A DNA stretch of 64,000 bases from Eledone cirrhosa. Taxonomy: Eukaryota. Made by a program: the position numbers and the translations under genes. Shown one piece after another: positions 57,341 to 57,690 of the stretch. The notes below the pieces were generated by a model that worked only from the letters and a program-made list of their open reading frames with translations, was not told where the DNA came from and made no database searches. Every line of letters begins with the position of its first letter. Positions within the stretch are counted from its first letter, which is position 1. The stretch spans positions 73,594,001 to 73,658,000 of the forward strand of contig OZ024741.1 in the NCBI GenBank assembly GCA_964016885.1, in the 5' to 3' direction.

Positions 57341-57690
57341 TATAAGCTATCGCCGTATTTTGACTAAAGAAATTAAAGAAAATTATTTAGCCTGATAGTG
57401 GGGTTAAGAACCGTCGGAGAAATGGAAAAGATGAGTATTGGCGTACATGGGAGTCGAACCCACATCTTTGGTTATCCAGACCACTGTGCTACCATTACAC
57501 CAACACATCACCTGAATAATGTGTTGGTGTAATGGTAGCACAGTGGTCTGGATAACCAAAGATGTGGGTTCGACTCCCACCATGTACGTCAATACTCATC
57601 TTTTTCCATTTCTCCGAGGGTTCTTAACCCCACTATCAGGCTAAATAATTTTCTTTAATTTCTTTAGTCAAAATACGGCGATAACTTATA
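57341..57690. mobile_element. Head-to-head palindromic pair of a tRNA-headed SINE in (TA)n
   Basis: ~170-bp arms 57341-57508 / 57519-57690 with a 10-bp spacer. Confidence 0.85.
57519..57590 (+). ncRNA. tRNA-like head (pseudo-tRNA)
   Basis: A-box tggtgtaatgg, D arm gtg/cac, anticodon arm tggt-ctggata-acca, T arm gtggg-ttcgact-cccac. Poor acceptor stem. Confidence 0.7.

Follow-up and report, generated by a model that had tools for sequence, protein, structure and literature searches.

The window, the whole 64,000-nt stretch of Eledone cirrhosa contig OZ024741.1 that was analysed (forward-strand positions 73,594,001–73,658,000), carries at 57344–57688 a palindrome composed of two arms joined 5'-to-5' and bordered on both sides by (TA)n. 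The left arm (57344–57512, minus strand) and the right arm (57519–57688, plus strand) are 95.9% identical over 171 nt, and their 5' ends are connected by a 6-nt junction (57513–57518) that is unrelated to the arm sequence. In both arms the start is no more than 3 nt away from base 1 of a tRNA-like cloverleaf that contains A and B boxes, as had been described in an earlier reading made from the sequence only. The left cloverleaf (57439–57509, minus strand), which is called by ARAGORN and scores 43.2 bits against RF00005, has GGA at the anticodon position and a short variable loop; the right one (57519–57592, plus strand) scores 39.2 bits and contains a 3-nt duplication inside its T stem. Both scores exceed the Rfam cut-off of 29 bits. 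Directly 3' of the left cloverleaf is a T4 run (57426–57429, minus strand), which resembles a Pol III terminator and forms the 3' strand of a flanking stem, and a T5 run (57601–57605, plus strand) lies directly 3' of the right cloverleaf. Apart from TA, no target-site duplication (TSD) is found at the palindrome and there is no poly-A, in agreement with the earlier reading.

That reading took (TA)n to be the tail of each arm and the ~170-bp arms to be the entire element. Neither view holds: the (TA)n (57306–57344 on the left, 57687–57857 on the right) is the target, and the arms are part of a longer unit of ~270 nt, the left one corresponding to unit positions ~50–221 and the right one to ~54–221. 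The palindrome is one insertion made of two truncated arms of this unit. Both outward-pointing 3' ends are of the short type defined below, which is atypical of the family and is seen in 3 of 71 pairs. A second insertion of the same family lies in (TA)n at 28276–28378 and is without the tRNA part; it consists of an inverted arm (unit 203–231, short end) and a direct arm (unit 196–270, long end), so that the different 3' end points noticed there earlier are unit positions 231 and 270.

The ~270-nt unit and its copies

Tandem copies in the same genome, from a search in which 40 of 465 candidates were scored, have a period of 267–271 nt, and copies were mapped on a natural 270-nt unit as the reference. 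The unit comprises a leader (1–52), the cloverleaf (53–123), a T run (~133–138) and then two hairpins, and its 3' ends fall into two zones, a short one at ~220–232 and a long one at ~264–270, which are ~35–45 nt apart. The earlier description of a tRNA-headed SINE does not fit this layout: the cloverleaf is internal, with ~52 nt of conserved leader 5' of it in the tandem copies, 45 of 51 copies have a run of at least five T behind it, and the whole cloverleaf is present in only 22 of 84 tail-selected insertions.

Exact 15-mers from the cloverleaf, the young tail and the older tail occur 2178, 3005 and 3031 times, compared with 3, 4 and 73 for the respective controls. The number of insertions is estimated at ~4,500, as an extrapolation from one chromosome, the scaling factor (hits per insertion) having been taken from the first 30 hits in each of the tail sets. 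An ancient sister subfamily of ~65% identity shares the layout of the unit, and 13 of its 30 loci are inverted. The two arms of a pair belong to a single subfamily in 75 of 76 cases, and opposite arms of one insertion diverge by 5.0% versus 7.1% for random copies. The divergence between tandem units is 5.3%, versus the 5.0% for opposite arms (p=0.32), and this comparison does not tell a circular from a linear template. Overlapping loci of one insertion, the segmental duplicates L073/L196, the duplicate L190 and the unrelated hit L155 were removed before counting; L032 was left out of the first structure alignment, and the left end of L048 was set by hand. At L069/L153 one copy of the unit is joined, at its T loop, to a different tRNA-SINE, which suggests a template switch or recombination at the common B box.

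Cloverleaf structure and 5' ends

Of 108 arms entering the cloverleaf region, 66 stop at unit 107–124, with a mode at 113–114 (28 arms), 6 stop at unit 43–63 and 25 read through; outside the hotspot, stops amount to ~5% per 10 nt. Most copies end just 3' of tRNA position 58. A conventional tRNA-SINE at the same loci, 41 of 85 copies of which are full-length, shows 9 of 73 stops in the hotspot versus 66 of 105 for the tRNA unit (p=4e-12). The hotspot is also present in single-armed copies and at asymmetric junctions, and fold-back alone therefore does not explain it.

A58 corresponds to unit position 108, and the four ends mapped at 107–108 are readable as microhomology. The modified base m1A58 stops reverse transcriptases, and we infer that blockage at this base, with subsequent trimming by microhomology, would account for the one-sided stop boundary. 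The hotspot also overlaps short TA-like palindromes, and microhomology at these may contribute to it. Read-through copies show no excess of substitutions at A58 (3/133 versus 104/4270).

The purine tract of the leader pairs with the T-run region, lengthening the acceptor stem by ~17 bp. In young copies this flanking stem contains one-sided A-to-G changes opposite U (25 cells, two pairs), and covariation inside the young subfamilies alone does not beat shuffles. Between the young and the ancient copies, five majority pairs (one in the flank, two in the acceptor stem, one each in the D and anticodon stems) have changed on both sides yet are still paired, and four pairs are broken in one lineage; this signal depends on two lineages. 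Two-sided cells number 45, a value reached in 0 of 500 shuffles, a test inflated by relatedness, and not approached by slid controls (at most 26), while the covariation is 0.233 versus at most 0.138 for the slid controls. On these comparisons it appears to be the fold as such that is retained, and not the A and B boxes alone. When the whole unit is folded as a circle, it does no better than shuffled sequences (z -0.4 to -1.3), and one leader-to-tail copy does fold better than shuffles (z -2.7).

The D arm of the cloverleaf resembles genomic tRNA-Gln, but the overall 43–47/71 identities are no better than those to another repeat. The best identity to genomic tRNA-like sequences seen is at most 48/71, and a tRNA-Ser call for the cloverleaf is doubtful because of the short variable loop and the varying anticodon. 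Loci L092–L102 form a tRNA-Gln gene cluster, with a CTA anticodon variant in some repeats. A TA-flanked repeat of ~1.7 kb (L247, L249–L257) with constant ends has inside it a tRNA-like cloverleaf that scores well and varies in its anticodon, supplies 10 of 16 RF00005 hits and is possibly a non-autonomous DNA element with a tRNA mimic.

The structural data bear on an alternative in which the family is a decayed retrozyme or a pseudo-LTR of a Penelope-like element (PLE) that has passively captured a tRNA gene or SINE head, the cloverleaf having no role and the RNA being made by host read-through. Mobilisation by a PLE is common to this alternative and to the explanation preferred below; the T5 terminator speaks against Pol III as the maker of the template, the cloverleaf is missing from most copies, and no genomic tRNA-like sequence compared exceeds 48/71 identities. 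The compensatory changes in the acceptor, D, anticodon and flanking stems across ~35% divergence, however, argue against a cloverleaf without a role, as do the changes from A to G that face U within the flanking stem. Hammerhead-like words in the middle-aged subfamily are missing from the ancient one; a hammerhead relic was rejected on this ground, and the words are attributed to chance. Passive capture is on balance improbable.

Insertion geometry and classification

Among 140 distinct insertions, 93 are inverted pairs with their tails out, none has its tails in and 47 are single-armed. In position-ordered samples the inverted share is 17/24 (tRNA-selected) and 36/66 and 14/18 (tail-selected). 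Tandem run-through past the end sites into the next leader occurs in 14/24 tRNA-selected and 18/86 tail-selected insertions. The 3' ends lie inside the two end zones in 103 of 116 cases, the zones having been defined after the histogram was viewed and from BLAST ends that overrun into TA. A stretch of (TA)3 or longer lies within 22 nt of the 3' end in 100/116 cases of the first sample and 112/138 of the tail-selected sets.

The two ends of a pair differ in type. Where both ends are in zones (n=71), 66 pairs are short+long, 3 short-short and 2 long-long; 22 further pairs have one end outside both zones. The older tail set was chosen by a long-end motif, and the unbiased figures for short+long pairing are thus 36/41 in the first sample (p=4e-7 versus independence) and 12/13 and 12/12 in the samples that were not tail-selected. 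Possible non-TA direct repeats are found in 4 of 140 insertions, in a test that sought repeats of at least 7 nt and in which a TA duplication cannot show, and a poly-A end is found in 1 of 140. A Hydra PLE family of the same genome, used as a positive control, gave 12/12 short+long pairs; the conventional tRNA-SINE at the same loci, the negative control, has TSDs and 2 inverted pairs per 143 hits.

Craig et al. (PMC8557442) name as PLE hallmarks partial tandems, a 5'-truncated copy in inverted orientation and a tail of 30–40 nt, often at one end, and Frangieh et al. (PMC11167929) describe this tail as the distance between two internal RT starts, with both strands being cut and extended. The ~270-nt unit forms partial tandems, has an inverted 5'-truncated copy at its 5' side in 93/140 insertions and a tail at one end only in 66/71 pairs, and its target is microsatellite or AT-rich DNA.

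Five insertions combine one arm of the tRNA unit with a PLE-type arm, with no TA between the arms. The partner is a Hydra pLTR at L012, the 3' end of another PLE family at L089 and other hammerhead-motif families at L090 and L164, and at L278 the tail of the unit is joined to a 5'-truncated Hydra ORF. The first four of these are among 16 single-armed copies with a non-microsatellite 5' flank and run straight into the tails-out arm of a hammerhead-motif family. The sequences of the five chimeras fit single events using two templates; the chimeras, from five different families, could also come from deletion between adjacent insertions. With inverted and tandem insertions in (TA)n, short+long ends, no TSD or poly-A and arms shared with PLEs, the geometry is of the PLE type and not the LINE type, as had been proposed from the sequence.

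SINEs are Pol III elements that borrow the enzymes of LINEs. Measured against the SINEBase definition used here (PMC3531059), the unit is small and non-autonomous (~270 nt, below 700 bp) and has, at the level of sequence, the A and B boxes of an internal Pol III promoter, while its RNA-gene part is not a 5' head, being preceded by 52 nt in tandems, and the marks of a LINE partner (TSD, A-rich or simple-repeat tail, LINE-like 3' end) are missing. The element is likely a non-autonomous one of PLE type with an embedded tRNA mimic, and by definition it is not a SINE.

A LINE-driven tRNA-SINE of the classical kind, its inversions arising from twin priming, would account for the boxes and the size, for the 6 of 108 arms that start in the tRNA +1 region (unit 43–63) and for a window in which LINEs are abundant. 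Twin priming, however, does not yield arms that repeat the same 3' sequence with fixed ends, and in the unit both arms repeat one 3' sequence and have fixed end sites. The tandems contain sequence 5' of the tRNA, TSD and poly-A are lacking, the unit has no match to the LINE 3' ends within the window, and the true SINE at the same loci behaves otherwise. This explanation is very unlikely.

Slightly less credible still is a non-autonomous DNA element, either a TIR MITE in TA or a Helitron-type rolling-circle element on the other strand, to which the palindromic look, the TA flanks, the tandem copies and, in some copies, a long end whose opposite strand reads TC would be suited. The ends differ within an insertion and the centre junction is variable; one-armed insertions make up 47 of 140, and the most frequent point of 5' truncation is a landmark of the tRNA. 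A TIR MITE is refuted, the terminal inverted repeats being neither constant nor matching. Neither of the patterns named in advance as contrary to a PLE-dependent element, mostly single copies with TSDs or ends in the form of constant TIRs, is seen. Palindromes in TA repeats are a known class of artefact, but an assembly error from fold-back chimeric reads is hardly conceivable for arms that diverge by ~5%, carry indels and stop at sites that are different and recurrent. Contigs from a public run of one sample, from which the assembly itself may have been made, contain the repeat together with many internal joints.

Penelope-like elements, related systems and a possible mechanism

A PLE lies in the window at 43844–48345 (plus strand), with an inverted pLTR, a broken RT/GIY-YIG ORF (44441–46679) and a hammerhead-like core at 48149. 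Its family (L103–L144) is young and has many intact frames of ~745 aa, and an intact 737-aa relative contains the RT followed by GIY-YIG, with RWR, DKT and CxCX5C motifs. The features of the Hydra clade, namely a C-terminal EN, RWK-like and DKT motifs, a CxCX5C linker, a hammerhead and a (TA)n target, are found in this neighbour on a motif basis, and with its C-terminal GIY-YIG and hammerhead-like core it departs from Naiad, which has an N-terminal GIY-YIG and no hammerhead. Judged by these motifs, the neighbour is a Hydra-clade PLE and not the Naiad for which it had been taken.

The tail of this Hydra family, ~90 nt, is longer than the usually cited 30–40 nt, and the family is not supported as the partner of the unit, to which it has no significant homology (best match E=0.06); a weak 19/24 match to the short end site of the unit (E=1.1) was not counted. 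A second Hydra-like family (window 399–1246; L261–L280), of ~713 aa and with a hammerhead core that is degenerate in all viewed copies, shares just a 9-nt word with the unit and is likewise not supported as the partner. A comparison confined to these two Hydra families and to the PLE fragments in 281 genomic sequences yielded no autonomous PLE whose 3' region resembles that of the unit. Three motifs of the unit gave no match to a related PLE in the supplement of Craig et al., where line breaks and cut cells may hide some. The unit, whose tail the earlier reading had proposed to align to PLE and LINE 3' ends, matches no LINE 3' end in the window, and no homologous PLE was found among the families compared.

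Other (TA)n fold-back elements of the window are at 25358–25638, 27568–28078, 41772–41959, 42100–42930, 48338–49545, 53072–53602, 53788–54109 and 54570–55250, and several of these carry hammerhead-like cores. The genome appears to be full of PLE-type fragments and retrozyme-like units. The window also contains, at 9077–13470, an intact LINE ORF of 1141 aa with RVT_1 and zf-RVT hits, an (AAT)n tail and partial tandem 3' copies, and, at 60630–62744, a Lys/Glu-rich frame of 704 aa with a 33-nt repeat, which is probably a host exon. The PLE pieces of the window were not recognised in a Pfam search.

Non-LTR retrozymes are likewise non-coding units of 170–400 nt in short tandems, a range that includes the 267–271-nt period of the tRNA unit, and are described as non-autonomous PLE derivatives, either proposed or shown by phylogeny (PMC7229834; bioRxiv 10.64898/2026.07.22.740005). 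In these descriptions every retrozyme unit has a type I hammerhead as its defining feature, whereas the tRNA unit has a cloverleaf instead. A motif scan of the window finds hammerhead cores in the neighbours and none in either copy of the unit, and an Rfam search of a natural trimer of the unit, weak for minimal hammerheads, finds only tRNA.

The nearest precedent of the tRNA unit is Sm-alpha, a SINE-like repeat of Schistosoma, which is of tRNA origin. In Sm-alpha and Sj-alpha, too, a Pol III promoter lies inside the tandem unit, so that an upstream unit would transcribe the next one (PMC6765202, PMC6155905). Both carry an active hammerhead, and the review PMC6765202 links them to neither a PLE partner nor a tail signature. 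The non-autonomous Chlamys elements of green algae, for example MRC1 (PMC8557442), belong to a hammerhead-less clade and have pLTRs and multicopy head-to-tail insertions as in the unit; unlike the unit, they generally show 3' similarity to autonomous families, and that account reports no tRNA in the parts that treat them. The Hydra-clade PLEs of the same paper share with the unit the (TA)n target and the tails-out short+long pairs but are autonomous and hammerhead-bearing, and the neighbouring family, with its ~90-nt tail, is not homologous to the unit.

Conceptually the best analogue is TRIMp3 (Helenus, Ajax and Cassandra; PMC10886601), in which small-RNA-gene sequence lies within the terminal repeat of a non-autonomous retroelement. 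TRIMp3 are LTR elements with PBS, PPT, two direct LTRs and TSDs of 4–5 bp, whereas the geometry of the unit is inverted and of PLE type; its repeat test covered repeats of at least 7 nt. The tRNA-derived SINEs, including OK, OR1 and OR2 of octopus, are short elements of high copy number with A and B boxes like the unit, which differs in that the tRNA is not 5' and TSD and LINE tail are absent. PMC6685494 refers to short non-autonomous Penelope elements and gives no structure for them. A search of openly accessible literature, judged by titles, abstract openings and selected passages, gave no account of a tRNA-bearing, ribozyme-free PLE parasite.

We consider it very probable that the family is a non-coding unit of ~270 nt with an internal tRNA-like cloverleaf, inserted into (TA)n as tails-out pairs or short tandems and most likely copied in trans by the RT and GIY-YIG endonuclease of a (TA)n-targeting PLE. 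Hydra-type families are the leading candidates for the enzyme donor. Since tandems pass the end sites into the leader, the template RNA would exceed one unit in length or be circular. The PLE protein would nick both strands of (TA)n and start two internal cDNAs, one per end site, which would then become joined 5'-to-5'. The RT would mostly halt immediately 3' of position 58 of the tRNA, where m1A58 is the probable obstacle; most copies would therefore be left without the cloverleaf, and the role of source would fall to full or tandem copies alone. The cloverleaf and the flanking stem may act as a promoter, a processing signal or both, replacing the hammerhead of other PLE-type units. As the T5 run would normally stop a Pol III transcript ahead of the RT start sites, either Pol III would have to read past it, or host read-through would make the RNA and the cloverleaf would be a processing signal.

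A more elaborate and tentative reading, rather unlikely as a whole, joins these steps: the tRNA mimic would replace the hammerhead, RNase P would cut multimers at each cloverleaf, the 17-bp flanking stem would pair the freed 3' leader beside the 5' end, the nick would be ligated, and the PLE RT would roll round the circle, with m1A58 limiting the length. If true, this would define a ribozyme-free class of PLE parasite dependent on tRNA processing.

LTR parasites bearing a tRNA were described in 2024, and the tRNA unit fills a third slot, that of elements with PLE insertion signatures; a hammerhead would be dispensable for such a PLE-type unit. The unit offers PLE biochemistry a minimal natural template of 150–270 nt with two mapped RT start sites, and its short+long pairs and mixed-family chimeras bear on how the inverted ends of PLEs form. 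The stop at tRNA position 58 makes tRNA modification testable as a limit on retroelements. An annotation of Octopus lists 893 unclassified SINE families (PMC13282606), and the unit may thus already sit mislabelled in a library; more generally, the "unclassified SINEs" of microsatellite-rich invertebrate genomes may contain PLE parasites.
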